The translations under genes and the position numbers were made by a program. The notes beneath the pieces were generated by a model, which saw only the letters and a program-made list of their open reading frames with translations, had not been told where the DNA came from and did no database searches. Below, one piece after another: positions 1 to 63,961 of a DNA stretch of 64,000 nucleotides. Source of the DNA: an uncultured bacterium (GTDB taxonomy: Bacteria > Bacillota_I > Bacilli_A > RFN20 > CAG-826); contig CASFZN010000018.1 in assembly GCA_949299195.1 (NCBI GenBank), positions 262,129 through 326,128 on the forward strand, written 5' to 3'. How positions within the stretch are numbered: the first letter of the stretch is position 1; each line of letters begins with the position of its first letter.

Positions 1-1
1 T

Positions 2-136
2 GTAGGAACATTAGCTAGAGATTTAGGATTATTAAAGAAGAATTATCATATCGATTCTATTGATTTTGTTGATATGTTTCCAAGAACTTTCCATATAGAA
101 ACCGTAGTTTCGATGTCCTTAATAAGAAAAGGATAA
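2..136 (+). CDS. 3' end of an unidentified protein gene (44 codons visible, stop TAA 134-136)
   Basis: The open frame runs from the window edge to a TAA stop. The translation VGTLARDLGLLKKNYHIDSIDFVDMFPRTFHIETVVSMSLIRKG has no family I recognise. Confidence 0.3.
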   Translation, partial: VGTLARDLGLLKKNYHIDSIDFVDMFPRTFHIETVVSMSLIRKG

Positions 137-184
137 GTTAAATATTAAGAGATAAATGTGTGTTTTATTTTCAATAGAATCTCT

Positions 185-393
185 ATGATTAAAGAAGGGA
201 AAATCCTAGTTTTCTCGCATAATTAGAGACAGGATATGTTGTTATTGAAAACCATCATCATTTTAAAGGCTACACTTTATTCCCTTGTAAAGAACATAAA
301 ACTGAATTATTTCAGTTAGATAATTCAATTAAAATAAAGTTTTTAGAAGAAATGAAATCAAGTTTGTTAAAAGAATTAAATAAATTACCATAA
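185..393 (+). pseudogene. Possible degenerate HIT-family (histidine triad) remnant, frameshifted and truncated
   Basis: ATG 185 gives MIKEGKILVFSHN then a stop. The +1 frame continues LETGYVVIENHHHFKGYTLFPCKEHKTELFQLD..., which resembles the HIT segment AFLDI.P..GHTLVIPK.H...L. It ends about 35 aa later, before any HxHxHxx triad. Confidence 0.25.
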
Positions 394-584
394 TACTTAT
401 TTCATTTTGTTGTTGGTAGGTTTCTGTGAATATATAAATTGATAAAGCTATAAGGAACTTTTGTTTTATCTTATAGTTAAAAATTGAGATTATCCTTTCT
501 AGATGCTTAAAAGAATAAAACCTGCCAAATTGTACGTTTTGAGGAATACAGATTCTAAAAACACGATAAACATCGTATAAATAA

Positions 585-600
585 GGTTCCACGTGGAAAC
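585..600. repeat. Dispersed palindrome copy 1 (variant GGTTCCACGTGGAAAC plus T7 tract), intergenic
   Basis: Matches the consensus 16-mer at 15/16 positions and is flanked by AA...TTTTTTT. Confidence 0.8.
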
Positions 601-780
601 TTTTTTTATAACCGAAATTTGCTATTTAATTACTGAAATTCTACTAACAATCAGTCTTTAAAAAATCGTTATCAAATTTGTAGACAAAGTTGTATTTATC
701 TTGTAAACTATGGCTAACATAATTAAATGAAAGACAAAATAAACCGTTTGGATTTATTTATGTTAATATTTTTCTCCTTT

Positions 781-810
781 AAACTGAGTAATATACTCAG
801 TTTTATTTTT
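781..810 (+). terminator. Intrinsic terminator-like hairpin (10-bp stem AAACTGAGTA/TACTCAGTTT, 3-nt loop) plus T-tract in the leader upstream of the flavoenzyme gene
   Basis: A perfect inverted repeat is followed by TATTTTT. A TATAAT hexamer follows at about 827 and the gene RBS/ATG at 882. Confidence 0.4.
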
Positions 811-881
811 GTGCATTTGTTTTATAATATATGTAATTCGATTTTGATTTTAAAATCATATAAAAAGGGGAAAAATAATTT

Positions 882-2939
882 ATGAAAAAAGAATATGAAT
901 CACTTTTTACTCCCTGGAAGATAGGCAATGTCACAATTAAAAACAGAATTGTAATGTGCCCAATGGGTGGAACCTCTCTTTTTGGATGGATGCAACCAAG
1001 CACTTTCAATAAAGTTGCTGCAGATTTATTCCTCGAAAGAGCTAAAAACGATGTAGGTTTAATTATTCCAGGAATTGCGCCGTTAAGAGATTCTATCGGA
1101 GGTAAATGGTTATATAAAAACAAGAAAGCTTTTGAAGAACTCGCAAAATATATGGAAGAATTCCATAAAACAGGCGCAAAAATGTTTGTCCAACTAACTG
1201 CAGGATTTGGTAGAAGTTATGCAATTAATAAGGAAGCTGCTTTATTGCTTAAATATAAAGCACTTGGAGCAATCGCTAAACCTATTTTAGATGTTTCCTA
1301 TTTAACTGCATCACCATCTGTTTTACCATCTAGATGGGATCCAGAACTTAAATGTCGTGAGATGACTAGAAAAGAAATAAACGAAATTGTTTTTGCTTAT
1401 GCAGAGACATCAAGAATGTTAAAAGAAGCAGGAGTTGATGGAGTTGAAGTTCACGCAGTTCATGAAGGTTATTTATTAGATCAATTCACTCTTAAATATA
1501 CAAACTTTAGAAAAGATGAATATGGCGGAAGTTTTGAAAATAGATATCGTTTCCCTGTTGAAGTTGTTCAAGCAATTAAAAAGGCATGCGGAGATGATTT
1601 CCCAGTTTCATTAAGATATTCCGTTATTTCTAAAACAAAAGGCTTTGAATATGGAGCATTACCTGGAGAAACTGACTATATTGAAGTTGGTAGAGATATG
1701 GAAGAATCCATTAAAGCTGCTAAATATTTAGAAGAAGCAGGGTATGACATGTTAAATGCTGATAATGGTACATATGACGCTTGGTATTGGGCTCATCCAC
1801 CAGTTTATATGCCATATAATTGTAACTTAGAAGATTGTGTAGAAATTAAAAAGCACGTAAAAATCCCTGTTGTTTGTGCAGGTAAAATGCAACTTGATGT
1901 TGCTTCTAGAGCAATTCAAGAAGGCAAGATTGATGCAATGGGTGTTGCAAGACAATTCTTAACTGATGGAGAATGGGTTAATAAAGTTATCAACGATAAA
2001 GAAGAAGATATCATGCCATGTATTCAATGTCATAACGGTTGTTTTGCTTTATGTAAATATAAAGGAGTTCCAAACACTCAATCCTTACATGAAGTTAAAC
2101 AAATGTCTCGATGTGCATTAAATCCAACCACAATGACTGGAGATAAATATAAATTAACTCCAGCAAAAGAAAAGAAACATGTTGTAATTATTGGTGGCGG
2201 AATCGGCGGAATGGAAGCTGCTAGAGTCGCTAAATTAAGAGGTCACGATGTAACAATCTATGAAAAAACCGATAGATTAGGTGGAGTTTTCAATGAAGCT
2301 GCTAATTTTGATTTCAAAGTTGAAGACAAAAAACTTATCGAATGGTATAAACGCCAAATGAAAAACTTAGAAATTGAAATTAAATATAACGAAGAAGTCA
2401 AAGACTTTAATTTATTAAGTTATGATGAATTAATTATTGCAACCGGTGCTAAAGAAAAGACCTTAAATATCCCAGGAATTGATAAAGCAATTAGCGCTTT
2501 AGATTATTTAAAAGATAAAGAAAAGGTTGGAAATAGAGTAGTTGTTATTGGTGGAGGCTTAACGGGATGCGAAATCGCTTATGATTTGCATTTAAAAGGT
2601 AAAACACCGGTAATTGTTGAAATGTTAAACGATTTAATGGCTGTTAAAGGTCTATGTTTAGCTAATTCATCATTCTTAAGAGACTATTTCAAAACTAATA
2701 GCGTTGAAGTCTATTTAGAATCAACAGTTCGCCAAATTAAAGAAGACGAATTAGTAGTTGTTGATAAAGCTGAACGACCAACAAACGTTAAATTTGATTC
2801 AATAATTTATGCAACAGGATATACTCCAAATCCATTAACAAAAGGAGCTAAAAATGTCCATGTTATCGGAGATTCTTATAAGGTAGGCAACTTAAAAGAT
2901 GTTATTTGGAGAGCATACGAAGTTGCAATGAATTTATAG
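882..2939 (+). CDS. Two-domain flavoprotein: N-terminal Old-Yellow-Enzyme / 2,4-dienoyl-CoA reductase-like FMN TIM barrel, C-terminal FAD/NAD(P)-binding domain (enoate reductase / NADH oxidase family)
   Basis: The translation carries the OYE N-terminal pattern (KIGNVTIKNRIVMCPMGG, HAVHEGYLLDQF), a 4Fe-4S Cys cluster (CIQCHNGCFALC) and Rossmann GGGIGGMEAA / VIGGGLTGCE motifs. RBS AAAAGGGG precedes the ATG. Length 685 aa. Confidence 0.85.
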   Translation: MKKEYESLFTPWKIGNVTIKNRIVMCPMGGTSLFGWMQPSTFNKVAADLFLERAKNDVGLIIPGIAPLRDSIGGKWLYKNKKAFEELAKYMEEFHKTGAKMFVQLTAGFGRSYAINKEAALLLKYKALGAIAKPILDVSYLTASPSVLPSRWDPELKCREMTRKEINEIVFAYAETSRMLKEAGVDGVEVHAVHEGYLLDQFTLKYTNFRKDEYGGSFENRYRFPVEVVQAIKKACGDDFPVSLRYSVISKTKGFEYGALPGETDYIEVGRDMEESIKAAKYLEEAGYDMLNADNGTYDAWYWAHPPVYMPYNCNLEDCVEIKKHVKIPVVCAGKMQLDVASRAIQEGKIDAMGVARQFLTDGEWVNKVINDKEEDIMPCIQCHNGCFALCKYKGVPNTQSLHEVKQMSRCALNPTTMTGDKYKLTPAKEKKHVVIIGGGIGGMEAARVAKLRGHDVTIYEKTDRLGGVFNEAANFDFKVEDKKLIEWYKRQMKNLEIEIKYNEEVKDFNLLSYDELIIATGAKEKTLNIPGIDKAISALDYLKDKEKVGNRVVVIGGGLTGCEIAYDLHLKGKTPVIVEMLNDLMAVKGLCLANSSFLRDYFKTNSVEVYLESTVRQIKEDELVVVDKAERPTNVKFDSIIYATGYTPNPLTKGAKNVHVIGDSYKVGNLKDVIWRAYEVAMNL

Positions 2940-2963
2940 ATATTCTTTTGGGGGTAAAGGAAA

Positions 2964-4256
2964 ATGAGCGAATATAAAATGAGACTTACAAAAGAACAAC
3001 AAGAAATTTTAGAAGGCAAAAAAGGCGAAACCATGAAGAAAATGATGGAAACGCTTGTCCTTTTTGGAGAGATTTTTGATGCAGAAAGACTTGCAAAAGT
3101 TACTCATAACGAAGGACATTTAGTTACATCGTTTGGCATCCCATTATTAAAACCATTATTTAAAACAATGGAAGAGCTTAATAATGAAGGAATTAAAGCT
3201 CCTGGAGGATTTACTTGCGATCCTCGTCCATTAGATTATAAAAATGTTAAATGTAATTTATTGGAAAAAGCCGTATTTAATCTTGTTTTATACGGAAAAC
3301 AAAAAGAATACGAAGAACAACTTCTAAAAGCAGGACTTACCGACTTAGATTCTTTTTCTTGTACTTGTTACTTAAAAGAATGTGGGAATAGACCTAAAAA
3401 AGGAGACATCTTATCTTGGGCTGAAAGTAGTGCGGTTGTTTTTGCTAACTCAGTTTTAGGTGCAAGATGTAATAGAAATTCTGGAATGATTGATTTGTTT
3501 GGTTCAATTATTGGATATGTCCCAGAATTTGGCTTATTACTTGATGAAAATAGAAAAGCTGATTGGGTAATAGAAATTAAAACTAAAGAAATTCCTGAAG
3601 CTCAAATTTTAGGTTCTGCTATTGGAATGAAAGTCATGGAAGATGTTCCTTATATTAAAGGATTAGATAAATTCTTAGGAACTGAAATTGATGATGAAGT
3701 TGAAGCGTATTTAAAAGATATGGGTGCTGCTAGTGCTTCTAATGGTGCGGTTGGATTATTCCACGTTGAAAATTTAACACCTGAAGCAAAAGAACAAGGC
3801 GCATCTTTAATTAAAAAAGAAATTAAAGGTACCTATATAATCGACGATTATGAACTTGAAAGAGTTTATAAATCTTATCCAAATATGCGGAAGAAAAAAG
3901 ATGCAACTCCTGAAGTTTGTTTTATCGGTTGTCCACATTTAAATCTTTATCAACTTCGTAAATGGCATAAAGATATCTTAAGTAGTTTAGAAAAAAATAA
4001 GAAAACCAAGGTTAATTGCCAAGTTATTTTAACTGCTGCACCAAAGGTTGTTGAAGAATTTAAAACAAAGTATAAAACCGATTATGACAATCTTTATAAA
4101 GTAGGAGTTAAGATCTCATCTATTTGTCCACTTATGTACACCAATAATCCACTCGTACATAAAAAAGCAATTATCACTAATTCCAACAAGTTAAGAACTT
4201 ATTCAATGGCAAGATATTTTAAAGATCAAGATATCTTGGAATTAATCACAAAATAA
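2964..4256 (+). CDS. Aconitase X family, catalytic/large subunit (DUF521-like)
   Basis: 430 aa with an RBS GGGGGTAAAGGAAA upstream. It is immediately followed by a ~150-aa partner gene with an RBS, the split AcnX arrangement. Family assignment is from recalled sequence pattern and architecture, not a search. Confidence 0.55.
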   Translation: MSEYKMRLTKEQQEILEGKKGETMKKMMETLVLFGEIFDAERLAKVTHNEGHLVTSFGIPLLKPLFKTMEELNNEGIKAPGGFTCDPRPLDYKNVKCNLLEKAVFNLVLYGKQKEYEEQLLKAGLTDLDSFSCTCYLKECGNRPKKGDILSWAESSAVVFANSVLGARCNRNSGMIDLFGSIIGYVPEFGLLLDENRKADWVIEIKTKEIPEAQILGSAIGMKVMEDVPYIKGLDKFLGTEIDDEVEAYLKDMGAASASNGAVGLFHVENLTPEAKEQGASLIKKEIKGTYIIDDYELERVYKSYPNMRKKKDATPEVCFIGCPHLNLYQLRKWHKDILSSLEKNKKTKVNCQVILTAAPKVVEEFKTKYKTDYDNLYKVGVKISSICPLMYTNNPLVHKKAIITNSNKLRTYSMARYFKDQDILELITK

Positions 4257-4269
4257 GGAGGGGAAAGGA

Positions 4270-4722
4270 ATGAAAACATTTAAAGGTAGAGTTATCGCAA
4301 AAGGTAATTTCAAAGGCGAAGCTGCTGTTACTCATAGTGGATTTAATACTTTAGCATCCTTCCAAAAATCAGCGTTAATGAATAAGAAGAATGTTATTGT
4401 TAGTGATCAAAATAACAAAGAATTATTTAATAAGGATATTACTGGTAAAATCTTGTGTTTACCAATCACAATCGGTTCTACAACTGGTGGATTAGTTATT
4501 CAAACTGTTTGTGAAATGGGAATAAATCCAAAAGCGTTCTTATTTAGTGAATCGATTGATTCGCTCGCTGCTAGTGGAATTATATTAGCAAAAGTATGGC
4601 AAAATAGTGACGTTATTTGTATTGATAGACTTGGAAAAGAATTCCTAGACACCGTAAAAACTGGTGATACTTTAGAAATTCATGAAGATGGTACAGTAGA
4701 TATTTTACAAACTAATTATTAA
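4270..4722 (+). CDS. Aconitase X family, small swivel subunit (DUF126-like)
   Basis: 150 aa, 13 nt downstream of the large subunit, RBS AGGAGGGGAAAGGA. Gly-rich core motifs (GSTTGGLVIQ) fit the AcnX small subunit. Confidence 0.5.
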   Translation: MKTFKGRVIAKGNFKGEAAVTHSGFNTLASFQKSALMNKKNVIVSDQNNKELFNKDITGKILCLPITIGSTTGGLVIQTVCEMGINPKAFLFSESIDSLAASGIILAKVWQNSDVICIDRLGKEFLDTVKTGDTLEIHEDGTVDILQTNY

Positions 4723-5383
4723 GATATTTATCGATATTTTCTATCATTTCATTAAGTGTTAAATAAACATTACTTAATGGATATCCATCTACAAATACAT
4801 GGGAAACGGTTATATTGAGGGTGACGAAATACTTGTCATCCTCTTTTCTATATTTATCCCAAAATACTCTTGGACAACTGCTTGATGTATGGTTATTACT
4901 AGGAGTTGGATGAGTCATTGAAACAATAGATAACGTTGGGATACACGATATATAAAAAACACCATAATCACCGTCATTATATGTAGTGTCAATATCGCTA
5001 CGTTGGCTATATTCATTTAAAGTTTTACGGCACTTTTTATTAAAATTTGAAAAGGAAAAACTTTCATTAAAATCGGTTCTAGCATTATAAAAGACTCCAT
5101 TTACTTTGCTCATTACAGTAAATGTAGGATGAATAACATCGTAATAATAAATTTCATCATCAATATCTCTATAATGAAATTCTTCTACCTTATTCATTGC
5201 TAAAGAAACTAAATAAATAAAGATGATAAAAAAGGAAATATTCTGTTTTTTCCCATAATTAACAACATTTGTAACATCAACATTCACATTAAAACCATAC
5301 GTTGGGTCACTAAACGTTTTGAAATAGAGATATTGACTTAATTTTTTATAATTTTTCTTATCGATTTTTTTCTTTAAATTCAT
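4712..5383 (-). CDS. CAT-family acetyltransferase (chloramphenicol O-acetyltransferase-like fold)
   Basis: 223 aa, colinear with classical CAT: N-terminal KKNYKKLSQYLYF (the CAT NW.RREHFE-YR region), central FYNARTDFNESFS, and C-terminal catalytic SHVFVDGYP (the CAT HHAVCDGFH motif). Confidence 0.6.
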   Translation of the reverse strand: MNLKKKIDKKNYKKLSQYLYFKTFSDPTYGFNVNVDVTNVVNYGKKQNISFFIIFIYLVSLAMNKVEEFHYRDIDDEIYYYDVIHPTFTVMSKVNGVFYNARTDFNESFSFSNFNKKCRKTLNEYSQRSDIDTTYNDGDYGVFYISCIPTLSIVSMTHPTPSNNHTSSSCPRVFWDKYRKEDDKYFVTLNITVSHVFVDGYPLSNVYLTLNEMIENIDKYLNN

Positions 5384-38763: not shown

Positions 38764-39138
38764 GGGGATGTCTTGGTTTCGACATGAATGAATTGAGCAT
38801 TATACGCAGTGGAGTTGTGACCTAATCACTAAAAAATATCTGGCAACAGACAATCTTTAGCACTCGCTTGCTAGTTAATTACTAGTAATTGTTTATAGGC
38901 CATAAGGTTTGGCCTTTGAGTGACAGATAGTAGATTAACAGCTTCTTTAGTTTATTATCTGGAGTATTTAGAAGCTAGTTTAGATGATGATTATAGTCTA
39001 GATGAAGTTTATATAATCTATGGAATATTGAAATTTGTTACATTTAATAAATATTCTTAATTCTTTAAATATAACTAAACTGTAGAGGTAATGTGGGATT
39101 ATTTGTGGACCGGAGTTCAATTCTCCGCATCTCCACCA
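38764..39138 (+). ncRNA. ssrA: tmRNA (SsrA), ~375 nt
   Basis: 5' end GGGGATGTCTTGGTTTCGACA and the 3' tRNA-like end GGACCGGAGTTCAATTCTCCGCATCTCCACCA. The tag ORF after AAATATCT reads GGC AAC AGA CAA TCT TTA GCA CTC GCT TGC TAG, giving (A)GNRQSLALAC. Confidence 0.85.
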
Positions 39139-60205: not shown

Positions 60206-63200
60206 TTATGTTTTATACCTATAATCAATCAGTCCATATAATAATCCATAATATGAATCGTTTTGATTTAATGATGTGTTAATTTGAATTCGATAGACAT
60301 AACCTCCAATAACAGGAGTAATTGTTGTTTGCCCGAATACATCTCCTTCTGTAAACCCAGAAATATAAGCATATTCATTTGATCCAGGTTCATTATAAAT
60401 ATAAGCATAAGATTCAAAAGCTTCAATAAAGTGCGACCATCTATAAAAGTCTTCTCCTGGGTCATTAGCATAATAAACACCACCTTCATCCGTTGAGAAA
60501 CTAACTCCTACATCTATTAAATTATAAAAATCTTCCATTATAAAATTGTCATCATTAAGGATAGGTTTGTTTTCTGAATTAAAGGAACAACCTCTAATAG
60601 AAATACTTTTCAACACTCTATCTTCGCTTAAATCACTTGAATTCGCAGGTCCATAATTAAGCTCAATAAAGAGTCCATTAAAACCTTCCATATTAATTAG
60701 TCCGCCCAAATCTATAGTCATTGAGAAACTGCCATTTCCAGTTGATGGATCGTCCTTAGTTATAAAGTTTCCTATACACTCTTCAAGAGTTTTTGTGTTT
60801 GTTGTGTCTGTCGATTCCTCTTCAACCATAGATAATCCTACTTGGTAATAGATTATGCCCATTATTTCATCTCTATCTATTGCGATTGAAGCAATACCAG
60901 TAACTTCATCAATTAAGGTGTAATCTACTAAATAATAAAGAATGTTGGGAACACTAACTTCATCAGAACTTCCATTTGGATTGTATGATGTGGAGCCGAG
61001 AAGCTGTGCTTGTGTTAATTTAAATGTTTCGATTGAATAGTTATAACTATCCTCGTTTATTCCTGATATTTCTGGTCTAGATAGATTGAATCTATATATT
61101 TCGCATTCCGTATAAATAGTAAATTCAGAAGCATTTTTATTATCATAATAACCAAGGACAGAATTACCACCGAAAAAATTTTGATTTATGTTATTTATAT
61201 ATTTCTTGGCTCGTTCTTCCTGTCCTTTCTTGTTAGAGTAAATCTGTGAGTCAAAATATTTATATTGGTCTACCTTTACCTTATTATTACTAGATCCATG
61301 ATATGAAGCGATTGGTTTATTGGTACCGTTATACCCAAGATATCTTAAATCATCACTTAAGTCGTTTTGAAAACTATAAACCTCATAATCCTCAACTTTT
61401 TCTTGTATTTTATCTCCCTTCTCTACAAAAGAAGCTGTAGTTTTGGAGACATAACAAATTTCTGTGCCGTCTTCTAATCTTTTTGTAAAATATTCTATGT
61501 AGTATGGTCTTGTATTATACATGTAACCCGGTTGTTGGTCATTTGTATTTTTAGCTCTTTCAATAATGATATGAGATCTCGTTCCTGAATAAAGTGGTTC
61601 ATCTGCTCCAATATCTTTTTCATCGCATACTTCGACCATAGCGGTAACGGTTCTTGGTTCGATAAGATCTACTGATCCAAGATCAATATCCAGGCCTAGA
61701 ATTTTATACTTTAAGAATATGTTTACATCGAGCTTGCCCTTAATTTTGAAATATCTTCTATATGTAGAGTTAATTCCTAAAGTGATTAATGTTGATAAAT
61801 CTTTGACGTTGATAAAGTCGCTTTTATTAGTTAGGTAGTCGTAATCAACAAAGTCATGAGTTGTTGGGTCGCCTTCAACGGCTCCAAAAATATTATCTTC
61901 TTTTAAATTCTCGTCTCTTTCTAATGTGAGATTATCGATGGTTCCTAAATTAGGGATAGAAAGCGAATCCAACGTTAATTTATCAATTGAATATAAGTTT
62001 TTCTTTGTTTCTTCATTATATTCTTTTGAAGCTTTTAAGGTTATCTCACTCCAAGTTGGGTTTTCACTTTTATCAATAGTGATATTTCCCTCTTCGTCTT
62101 TTTCATATGTATCAAAAATTGCAGAAGAGATGCTTGCTTCGAGAACAATTTCATTGGAAATAGTCTCGATTTTCTTTATTTTTATATAGTCTGATATTAA
62201 AGTTTCTATTTCTTTATTTTCAATTAAATACATGATAATAAAGTTAGAATTTAAAGCGTTAATTATAGATTCTAAGTACGAATATAATAAATTGCTATCT
62301 TGAAGAGTTTTAATTTGTTCTAGTATCTCTAAAATAGAGGAAGCAGGAGAAACAATTTTAAATGATTCTTTGTTTTTTTTATTAAGTCTTAGATTTGCAA
62401 CAATAGTATCTTTTAAAACTTTATTACCTTTTATATCTTCATAATATTCCATTCCGTCATATTCTTTTATCGCTAAATTCTCATCATTTTTAGTACCATA
62501 ATATTTGAAAATAACATTCATAGGATTAGATAAAACGGGAGTTCTTTCTTTTCCTAATGAAGAGATTTTTCCTAAATCCATATTTCCTGAAACTAATTGA
62601 CCTTGGTAATTCATAAAGACATCGCCTAAAACCCCATAAGCGTTTTCTTTAGATACTAATGAAGTTGAAAGGTTATAGCCAAGTTTTTCAGTTTCGAAAG
62701 CATTTGAATTTTGGTTAGTAAATAAATCAATTAAGTCCATAATTATGGATATTTCTAATTTGTTATTTTCGTTAAGTTCACTACTATCAACAAAATTGCC
62801 TTTATTAAAATCATCATATCCATAGTTAAAGTTGATGACATAATTTCCATCATGAGTAGCAATATTTACATAAATTCCGATTAATTCTTGGAATCTTGTA
62901 TCATATAAAATCTTTATATATGGAGAGAATGATGGATCATTAACTGCCATTTCGTATTGGAAAATATATTCTGGATCGACGGTAATTTCTAAAGTTTCCC
63001 ATTCTTCATTAACATCAATCTTTAAGAATTTTTCTAATGGTCTTAAAGAAATGTTATCCATAATATATTGAATATCTTGGGTTAATTCGTAGTTTTCTAA
63101 TATTTCGTCAATATAATAATTGATGGTTCCAAGTATTTGTTCAAAATCAATATTAATTGAATTTTCTGTATTTTGTAAAAGCTCTAAAATAGTAGAGATT

Positions 63201-63961
63201 AAGGAATTAATTCCTTCAAAAGGAATGCAGATATATTTATCTTCTCCAAATAAATTTATTTCTACTATTAATGATTTTTTATTAGTTAAAGGATCATCTT
63301 GAATATAAATTCCTTTAACCATATTCATAATAGAAGCAATCGTTTCATTGATTCCACTTATTCCAAAATTAGTTAAAGCTAAATCAAAATTAGAGATAGA
63401 ATCTAAAGATAAATTATTAAAATCTAATTTTGATGCATTTAAATCGATGTTAGAAGAAAAACCAATATTTGAGTTATTTTTTAAATCAAATAATTGGAAG
63501 GACATCTTTCCGCCTAATGTTTTACGGTTTATTAAACTGGTTACTGATTCAATCATTCCAGGCAAGAAATCGTATGAAGGGAAAGATGATAAGTCGTATG
63601 GTTTAAGTTCGATTAAATCGTTAATTCTTAAAGAGGCATCAATAGTAGTTTCTTCATCAACTCTTAAGTTTTTAATCTCGATTGTTTTAAGTTTTAAATT
63701 GTGTAATCCAATTTTTATATCTAAGATCGATTCAGGGAGTCCAAAGACACTAGAATCTATCTTTAAAGATAATAAATTATTCTTTAAAGAATAAGATTTA
63801 ATACTACTTAAATAGGAAGAGATGTCTCGAGTGGTAGATATTTCTTTAAAAGAAGTAGTATTAAATAATGAATTAAGAGGCATATTTACATATTCATTAA
63901 AATCTATGTCAGTATAATTACTTACGACATCTAAAAGAGAAGAGATACCAGTATCTGACAT
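60206..63961 (-). CDS. Very large hypothetical protein (1251 aa), Asn/Ser/Thr/Tyr/Asp/Ile-rich
   Basis: Continuous ORF with a strong RBS (AAAGGAAGG) before ATG 63961. No signal peptide, TM segment or known domain recognised. Its upstream context lies beyond the window edge. Confidence 0.5.
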   Translation of the reverse strand: MSDTGISSLLDVVSNYTDIDFNEYVNMPLNSLFNTTSFKEISTTRDISSYLSSIKSYSLKNNLLSLKIDSSVFGLPESILDIKIGLHNLKLKTIEIKNLRVDEETTIDASLRINDLIELKPYDLSSFPSYDFLPGMIESVTSLINRKTLGGKMSFQLFDLKNNSNIGFSSNIDLNASKLDFNNLSLDSISNFDLALTNFGISGINETIASIMNMVKGIYIQDDPLTNKKSLIVEINLFGEDKYICIPFEGINSLISTILELLQNTENSINIDFEQILGTINYYIDEILENYELTQDIQYIMDNISLRPLEKFLKIDVNEEWETLEITVDPEYIFQYEMAVNDPSFSPYIKILYDTRFQELIGIYVNIATHDGNYVINFNYGYDDFNKGNFVDSSELNENNKLEISIIMDLIDLFTNQNSNAFETEKLGYNLSTSLVSKENAYGVLGDVFMNYQGQLVSGNMDLGKISSLGKERTPVLSNPMNVIFKYYGTKNDENLAIKEYDGMEYYEDIKGNKVLKDTIVANLRLNKKNKESFKIVSPASSILEILEQIKTLQDSNLLYSYLESIINALNSNFIIMYLIENKEIETLISDYIKIKKIETISNEIVLEASISSAIFDTYEKDEEGNITIDKSENPTWSEITLKASKEYNEETKKNLYSIDKLTLDSLSIPNLGTIDNLTLERDENLKEDNIFGAVEGDPTTHDFVDYDYLTNKSDFINVKDLSTLITLGINSTYRRYFKIKGKLDVNIFLKYKILGLDIDLGSVDLIEPRTVTAMVEVCDEKDIGADEPLYSGTRSHIIIERAKNTNDQQPGYMYNTRPYYIEYFTKRLEDGTEICYVSKTTASFVEKGDKIQEKVEDYEVYSFQNDLSDDLRYLGYNGTNKPIASYHGSSNNKVKVDQYKYFDSQIYSNKKGQEERAKKYINNINQNFFGGNSVLGYYDNKNASEFTIYTECEIYRFNLSRPEISGINEDSYNYSIETFKLTQAQLLGSTSYNPNGSSDEVSVPNILYYLVDYTLIDEVTGIASIAIDRDEIMGIIYYQVGLSMVEEESTDTTNTKTLEECIGNFITKDDPSTGNGSFSMTIDLGGLINMEGFNGLFIELNYGPANSSDLSEDRVLKSISIRGCSFNSENKPILNDDNFIMEDFYNLIDVGVSFSTDEGGVYYANDPGEDFYRWSHFIEAFESYAYIYNEPGSNEYAYISGFTEGDVFGQTTITPVIGGYVYRIQINTSLNQNDSYYGLLYGLIDYRYKT

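Follow-up and report, generated by a model that had tools for sequence, protein, structure and literature searches.

Two-domain Old Yellow Enzyme (OYE)/Fe-S flavoenzymes, among them FadH and the clostridial 2-enoate reductases, reduce activated C=C bonds with NAD(P)H as the electron donor, and the same architectural family is reported to include an NADH oxidase from a thermophilic anaerobe. Aconitase X (AcnX) enzymes form 2-enoates by abstracting the C2 proton and expelling the C3-hydroxyl of their substrate; in the characterised members the carboxylate and the C3-OH are bound, a serine of the swivel subunit is the base and the hydroxyl leaves on the cluster iron (PMC8184944). Type II AcnX has been split into subclasses a-f, of which IIc-f are without the landmark residues and uncharacterised (PMC8184944), and their functions were stated to be still unknown in 2023 (PMC10040528). 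The present analysis concerns a locus that encodes an OYE-type flavoenzyme together with both AcnX subunits, in a stretch of 64,000 nucleotides (contig CASFZN010000018.1, positions 262,129 to 326,128; the whole stretch is hereafter called the window) whose closest relatives are uncultured gut 'Bacilli'/Mollicutes-like metagenome-assembled genomes (MAGs).

The locus consists of three + strand open reading frames (ORFs) at 882-4722 of the window, followed by a terminator-like element:

882 to 2939, + strand: OYE-type Fe-S flavoenzyme, 685 aa (Pfam, Cys motif, GxGxxG).
2964 to 4256, + strand: aconitase-X large (catalytic) subunit, AcnX-L, 430 aa (PF04412, AlphaFold model, conserved residues).
4270 to 4722, + strand: aconitase-X small (swivel) subunit, AcnX-S, 150 aa, with Ser70 (PF01989, alignment with TK1248 (7cnr_B) and AF0055).
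4817 to 4843, + strand: probable operon terminator, an 11-bp hairpin with a T-run (terminator scan; -16.1 kcal/mol, z = -5.9 by comparison with shuffled sequences, as for all hairpin energies given here).

We propose, with moderate confidence, that the trio forms one metabolic unit for the CoA-independent reductive beta-dehydroxylation of a carboxylic acid. The enzyme families, the intact catalytic residues and the conserved gene linkage are the observed basis of this pathway. Within the window, a single unit is supported by intergenic gaps of only 24 and 13 nt, by separate Shine-Dalgarno (SD) sequences (GGGGGTAAAGGAAAATG preceding 2964 and AAGGAGGGGAAAGGAATG preceding 4270) and by the single strong terminator-like hairpin after the third gene. 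The initial annotation had described three colinear, closely spaced genes with their own ribosome-binding sites (RBSs), and these were found as described; Pfam and sequence motifs also confirmed its gene calls and domain architecture for all three genes.

Domains were called at Pfam gathering scores and NCBIfam curated cut-offs, and RNA families with the covariance models of Rfam 15. The large subunit matches PF04412 with E = 2.4e-91 (306.8 bits, cut-off 31.5) and the small subunit matches PF01989 with E = 6.2e-12 (45.6 bits, cut-off 27). The best match in the Protein Data Bank (PDB) of a large-subunit profile made from 16 homologues is the large subunit of archaeal TkAcnX (E = 2e-47), and the AlphaFold model of the large subunit (pLDDT 87, pTM 0.90) is matched by Foldseek to 7cnr_A (E = 7e-30, TM-score 0.79 for the query and 0.87 for the target) and 7cnq_A (TM-score 0.80); no further AcnX structure was found in the PDB search. 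The residues of Watanabe et al. 2021 (PMC8184944) were then placed onto homologue alignments. In these alignments Cys133 and Cys323 correspond to Tk Cys110 and Cys283, and Cys388 falls on the position of AtAcnX Cys508, which has been equated with Tk Cys342 (PMC8184944). Cys133, Cys323, Cys388, Glu154-Ser155-Ser156, Lys409 and Tyr413 are at least 97% conserved among 74 large-subunit homologues, and the small-subunit G69-S70-T71-T72 motif, with the general-base Ser70, is at least 95% conserved among 62 homologues. The window pair combines the features of type II AcnX, namely the two Pfam domains in tandem, the three Cys ligands, the catalytic residues and the fold, and the earlier assignment of 2964-4722 to AcnX is upheld by the profile scores, the catalytic residues and the predicted fold.

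Among described enzymes, the window AcnX resembles the archaeal phosphomevalonate dehydratase (PMDh; AcnX IIb, represented by T. kodakarensis TK1249/TK1248, structures 7cnr/7cns, and by A. pernix PMDh), which is likewise made of two subunits, shares its fold with 28% identity and has the three Cys ligands, Glu-Ser-Ser, Lys, Tyr and the swivel catalytic Ser in common with it. This closeness of TkAcnX in both structure and sequence, together with the same three-Cys pattern, would agree with a bacterial PMDh acting in an archaeal-type mevalonate pathway. Such a role is exceedingly improbable, since the phosphate-binding residues of TkAcnX are replaced (Asn79 by an invariant Asp86, and the Gly48-Val49-Ser50...Asn53 loop by an invariant GHLVTSFGI, G51-I59), no conserved UbiD-type decarboxylase, UbiX or isopentenyl-phosphate kinase gene lies within 6-10 kb in the 168 loci whose neighbourhoods were compared, and an ene-reductase has no role in that pathway. 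Unlike the archaeal enzyme, the window AcnX also has bacterial hosts and an aromatic-rich insertion around residues 95-125 of the large subunit, and it is paired with an ene-reductase, not with a UbiD-type decarboxylase. The invariant Asp86 at the position of the phosphate-binding Asn hints at a substrate with a neutral or cationic distal group, and not with a phosphate or another strongly anionic one.

The hydroxyproline (C3LHyp) route of AtAcnX follows the same logic as the pathway proposed here, with dehydration by AcnX and then NAD(P)H-dependent reduction, and shares the core catalytic residues and Thr72 with the window pair, but its reductase is of an unrelated family. That the AcnX pair and the flavoenzyme themselves serve a hydroxyproline route would be consistent with the C3LHyp dehydratase model NF051439 being the sole NCBIfam match of the large subunit, with small-subunit Thr72 matching AtAcnX Thr72, a contact of the ring nitrogen, and with the presence in the flavoenzyme family of enzymes acting on C-N bonds. 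This assignment is nevertheless very improbable: the NCBIfam match reaches 144 bits against a cut-off of 700, Thr72 alone is kept among the AtAcnX landmarks (Asp203 is replaced by Val54 or His52, Trp35 by Leu28 and Ile206 by Phe57), the cluster ligands follow the three-Cys archaeal pattern and not that of type I, and the closest solved structure is TkAcnX, not AtAcnX. Judged by these residues, the window AcnX is a member of the bacterial type-II subclasses IIc-f, and it is an active-looking enzyme of an uncharacterised subclass.

The flavoenzyme matches Oxidored_FMN (E = 1.2e-54, residues 7-372) and Pyr_redox_2 (E = 4.7e-41, residues 433-656), with a cluster motif C380-x2-C383-x3-C387-x23-C411 and GxGxxG at 438 and 557. 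It therefore has the FMN barrel, the four-Cys motif and the two-dinucleotide-fold domain of the OYE/4Fe-4S/FAD-NAD(P)H architecture. The clostridial 2-enoate reductases, FadH and 2-naphthoyl-CoA reductase (NCR) share with it this three-module architecture, the Cys motif, both dinucleotide motifs and E-G-Y; in the window sequence H191-A-V-H194-E-G-Y197, the E-G-Y aligns with S-E-G-Y of FadH (Tyr166), and both of the AcnX-linked OYE clades have kept this motif. The H-x-x-H pair is kept in the window flavoenzyme but is missing from FadH and NCR. The closest solved structures are NCR (6qkg, 9.4e-61) and FadH (1ps9, 2.5e-60), with an identity of only ~25-30% to any solved member, and the best NCBIfam models, BilR-long and BaiCD, both stay below their cut-offs (365.4 bits against 750 and 350.6 against 825). 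Because its nearest solved relatives are NCR and FadH and its NCBIfam scores are under half of the cut-offs, the flavoenzyme is classed by sequence as an uncharacterised member of the FadH/2-enoate-reductase architecture. Homologues among the cluster members are named only 'predicted aconitase', 'aconitase X' or 'FAD-dependent oxidoreductase'.

Conservation of the trio was assessed from both ends. The AcnX-anchored scan used an AcnX-L alignment as query against one genome per GTDB species and found at least 591 relatives, of which the best 80 loci were examined; these derive from MAGs of gut, rumen, chicken and digester origin that belong to Bacilli, Christensenellales and other Clostridia, Erysipelotrichaceae and Spirochaetales. 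The OYE-anchored scan used the flavoenzyme as query against metagenome contigs, and the 80 contigs returned were examined. AcnX-L adjoins AcnX-S in 80 of the 80 AcnX-anchored loci, and an OYE-type gene lies within ~3.5 kb of the pair in 42 of these 80 species genomes, in five arrangements that involve two OYE clades. The linked gene is an orthologue of the window flavoenzyme (56-70% identity) in 25 of the 42; it precedes the AcnX pair in 14 of these and follows it in 4, each time on the same strand, is divergent in 5, and lies on the opposite strand ~3.5 kb downstream of the pair in 2. The remaining 17 carry the second OYE clade, which is ~752 aa long, 26-30% identical and of the same architecture with an N-terminal extension, and which is always directly upstream (carriers are loci L013, L014, L017, L019-L021, L024, L026-L028, L039, L041, L051, L063, L066, L074 and L077). 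From the other end, both AcnX subunit genes occur within 6 kb in 37 of the 80 OYE-anchored contigs in four arrangements; the AcnX genes follow the OYE gene on its own strand in 22, precede it on that strand in 11 and lie on the opposite strand in 4.

Clustering of all ORFs, first in 81 and then in 168 loci, found no other gene family in more than 11 of the 168, and the unit therefore comprises exactly these three genes. The remaining neighbours are lineage-specific housekeeping genes, namely MetH, MTHFR, RpoA, tRNA synthetases and PRPP synthetase, recognised by eye, and a few others whose identity was checked with Pfam. No CoA ligase or transferase is linked to the flavoenzyme in these loci. 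The trio is thus conserved together in related genomes, though not universally. The initial annotation knew of no characterised pathway with this pairing, and none was found in NCBIfam, the PDB or the searchable literature, where no paper on a pairing of AcnX with an enoate reductase came to light. Previously undescribed are the AcnX subclass and its recurrent ene-reductase pairing, the enzyme families themselves being known.

Several observations weigh against a single unit. Among the 80 AcnX-anchored loci, 23 are without an OYE gene and were counted as informative because at least 3 kb of flank is available on both sides (15 more are too short to judge), and 25 of the 80 OYE-anchored contigs are without AcnX despite adequate flanks, leaving about one-third of the informative loci on each side unpartnered within at least 3 kb. 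In addition, three OYE orthologues sampled on long contigs have no AcnX partner and are surrounded by unrelated genes, for CoA-disulfide reductase-rhodanese, Fur, Ldh and tRNA synthetases. The two enzymes can therefore be encoded separately, and may also work separately. The adjacency counts are not phylogenetically independent. Neighbourhood clustering of the 168 loci also found no linked transporter, regulator or further pathway enzyme, and therefore nothing in the surroundings points to the substrate.

These observations bear most directly on the main rival to the pathway, co-location without a shared substrate, in which the flavoenzyme would be a general NADH oxidase or redox-stress reductase, AcnX would be an independent housekeeping dehydratase and the two would be neighbours through common regulation, such as that of oxygen-sensitive Fe-S enzymes. 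The unlinked third on each side agrees with this explanation, as does the high conservation of both families (59-97% identity for AcnX-L and ~60-69% for OYE), which often stand alone among housekeeping genes, and stand-alone OYE genes adjoin those for CoA-disulfide reductase-rhodanese, nitroreductase and a Fur-family regulator. We consider it unlikely, because two OYE clades in at least five arrangements converge on the same AcnX pair, a pattern expected from selection for a shared pathway, and because no other 'redox' gene is linked.

Four Spirochaetales loci (L022, L037, L047 and L055; for example L037:6525-9301) have no OYE gene within the AcnX flanks. Just upstream of AcnX they carry genes for an amine-oxidase/phytoene-desaturase-type flavoprotein and an FNR-like 2Fe-2S reductase, with a divergent TetR gene, and downstream those for an Fe-ADH, a D-2-hydroxyacid dehydrogenase and a polar amino-acid ABC transporter. 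The flavoprotein and FNR-like pair may be a non-orthologous replacement of the reductase, an interpretation drawn from few related genomes.

In the proposed pathway, the AcnX heterodimer would probably hold a [4Fe-4S] cluster on Cys133, Cys323 and Cys388 and would bind the carboxylate and C3-hydroxyl of a 3-hydroxy-acid. Ser70 of the swivel subunit would take the C2 proton and the hydroxyl would depart on the free iron, yielding a 2-enoate (or a 2,3-enamine). Electrons would then pass in the flavoenzyme from NAD(P)H to FAD, the 4Fe-4S cluster and FMN, and the new C=C (or C=N) bond would be reduced with Tyr197 as the likely proton donor. Overall, a 3-hydroxy-acid would be converted through a 2-enoate to a saturated acid without CoA. 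A CoA-independent route is the most economical explanation because two OYE clades and five arrangements are tied to one conserved AcnX with no linked CoA ligase or transferase. The absence of a dedicated transporter or regulator nearby means that the substrate could possibly be an intracellular metabolite. The dehydrate-then-reduce route suggested in the initial annotation is chemically coherent with the AcnX mechanism (PMC8184944), and as a route it is still a proposal: we infer that both enzymes serve one substrate, and likewise the direction of flux and the cofactor.

Flux could also run in reverse, with the flavoenzyme desaturating a saturated acid and AcnX hydrating the enoate to a 3-hydroxy-acid, in a CoA-free sequence resembling beta-oxidation. 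AcnX reactions are reversible, PMDh having been assayed in the hydration direction (PMC10040528), and the flavoenzyme relatives trimethylamine dehydrogenase and histamine dehydrogenase, both among the PDB matches, act oxidatively. The hosts, by contrast, are fermentative gut and digester anaerobes, oxidation of an unactivated acid by NAD(P)+ is thermodynamically unfavourable and the second Rossmann motif, of the NAD(P)H type, is preserved, making this direction distinctly improbable.

The proposed pathway has parallels in gut anaerobes, in which bile-acid 7-alpha-dehydroxylation (BaiE with BaiCD/BaiH) and BilR are routes pairing dehydration with reduction by the same flavoenzyme family. Unlike the Bai route, the window locus encodes a dehydratase from a completely different family, and its BilR and BaiCD scores are less than half of the cut-offs. 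A more specific and more tentative possibility is that the trio represents a so far undescribed pathway of reductive beta-dehydroxylation, independent of CoA, which would be widespread among Bacillota and Spirochaetes of the gut and of anaerobic digesters. AcnX, with Asp86 and the aromatic-rich insertion, would in this case accept a beta-hydroxy acid whose distal group is neutral or cationic, and the enoate would serve as the NAD(P)H sink of the flavoenzyme. Possible examples of such substrates are a 3-hydroxy-amino or imino acid, or L-carnitine, which would be converted to crotonobetaine and then gamma-butyrobetaine. If true, this would provide the first function for AcnX IIc-f and a new gut microbial transformation.

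The pathway hypothesis, which draws on gene linkage and residue conservation, would apply to a widespread subclass, present in at least 591 species-representative genomes that belong mostly to uncultured gut and digester lineages with small genomes, and its AcnX-L is highly conserved over Bacilli, Clostridia and Spirochaetes. The recurrent linkage to an ene-reductase offers a concrete two-step reaction scheme for an orphan enzyme family and suggests that gut anaerobes may dehydroxylate hydroxy-acids free of CoA. This would be relevant to the annotation of gut metagenomes, and to biocatalysis as a dehydratase and an enoate reductase coupled on free acids.

The region upstream of the operon was compared among seven genomes, namely the window (W) and the relatives L001, L002, L003, L007, L009 and L010. 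It contains the following elements in the window:

768 to 780, + strand: CU-rich box ATTTTTCTCCTTT, anti-Shine-Dalgarno-like (conserved in seven genomes).
781 to 810, + strand: terminator-like hairpin (781-803) with a T-run (804-810) (terminator scan, folding energy).
823 to 828, + strand: candidate -10 box TATAAT of a putative operon promoter (read from the sequence, position-conserved).
864 to 876, + strand: ribosome-binding region AAAGGGGAAAAAT of the first gene (read from the sequence).

The hairpin at 781-803 consists of a 10-bp stem, in which 3 pairs are G-C, and a loop of 3 nt; TATTTTT extends from it to 810, and it folds with -10.3 kcal/mol (z = -5.1). The 'strong terminator hairpin' of the initial annotation is therefore real, but at this energy it is moderate and not strong. 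Hairpin and T-run are kept in all six relatives, 100-170 nt upstream of the start codon, and the seven genomes have four different stem sequences. The CU box lies directly 5' of the hairpin in all seven, within an intergenic region that is otherwise ~53% identical. Apart from one mismatch it is the complement of the SD region at 864-876, it resembles the 16S anti-SD, and the minimum free energy fold of 601-890 pairs it with the SD region (z = -4.2). The box may serve to sequester the SD, may form the 3' end of a small RNA or may be what is left of a minus-strand RBS. One candidate, a minus-strand small ORF starting from its RBS-like reverse complement (AAAGGAGAAAAAT), was rejected, having no conserved start codon or peptide in the seven loci.

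Most simply, the hairpin at 781-803 would be an ordinary terminator of upstream transcription, and the operon would have its own promoter beyond it, because a TATAAT whose position is conserved separates the hairpin from the RBS. TATAAT or a TATAAT-like hexamer occurs at the position equivalent to 823-828 in the six close relatives; the candidate promoter has no good -35 box. Behind the RlmD-like gene of L001 and L002, the counterpart of this hairpin is the sole terminator-like element, and across 163 operon starts there are 37 terminator-like hairpins, mostly directly after the upstream gene.

The initial annotation had instead treated 600-880 as a riboswitch- or attenuator-type leader controlling the operon. 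Control of this kind is suggested by the retention of hairpin and T-run with compensatory stem changes, by the adjacent conserved 13-nt CU box with its complementarity to the SD and by a promoter-like TTGnnA-17-TAACAT upstream of the CU box in L001, L007, L009 and L010 (W has TAACAT with no well-spaced -35). It is unlikely all the same. The Rfam scan, proposed for 600-880 and run on window positions 1-1200, gave no credible match at E <= 10 (best 21.6 bits against a gathering score of 51.4), and seven related loci gave no match at the gathering score. Neither sequence nor structure is conserved among the relatives upstream of the CU box, and the other relatives that share this gene order, L006 and those further out, do not have the element; their intergenic gaps measure 47-293 nt. 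The conserved TATAAT downstream of the hairpin, the position of the hairpin as sole terminator candidate after the preceding gene in L001 and L002, and the tendency of hairpins upstream of these operons elsewhere to sit right after the upstream gene also argue against a leader. The wording of a terminator 'in front of the promoter' was self-contradictory, as a terminator so placed cannot be an attenuator.

Between the RlmD-like 3' end (2-127) and the second of the hairpin-flanked regions, the ~465 nt at 136-600 are without an intact + strand ORF. They include a stop-interrupted frame (…GYVVIENHHHFKGYTLFPCKEHK…LNKLP, then stop) that ends at 393 and is without a Pfam match, and a palindromic hairpin with a T-run lies at ~583-607. 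In L007, L009 and L010 an intact 107-aa gene precedes the operon, and this gene is missing from the window. The segment 158-392 was considered as a frameshifted copy of it and rejected, since tblastn finds the gene absent from the window and the fragment is without a Pfam match. The 52-aa hydrophobic + strand ORF at 727-885, which starts at the putative leader start and has an ATGA overlap with the OYE start, is probably spurious, as it is without an SD, crosses the hairpin and is unconserved in relatives.

On the other side of the operon, an ORF for a CatA-like acetyltransferase (4712-5383, - strand; PF00302 E = 8e-20, under the NCBIfam CatA cut-offs) faces the AcnX small-subunit gene in convergent orientation, with an 11-nt overlap. 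The hairpin at 4817-4843, 95 nt past the small-subunit stop, lies in the 3' coding part of this ORF. Further away, a 1251-aa ORF (60206-63961, - strand) has no Pfam match at E <= 1e-5. The window (29% G+C) is otherwise ordinary chromosome with pyrG (recognised by eye), secA, uvrAB, glyA, dnaX and tmRNA; the tmRNA gene (38764-39138, + strand; RF00023, 105.5 bits) is the sole Rfam family at gathering score in the window.

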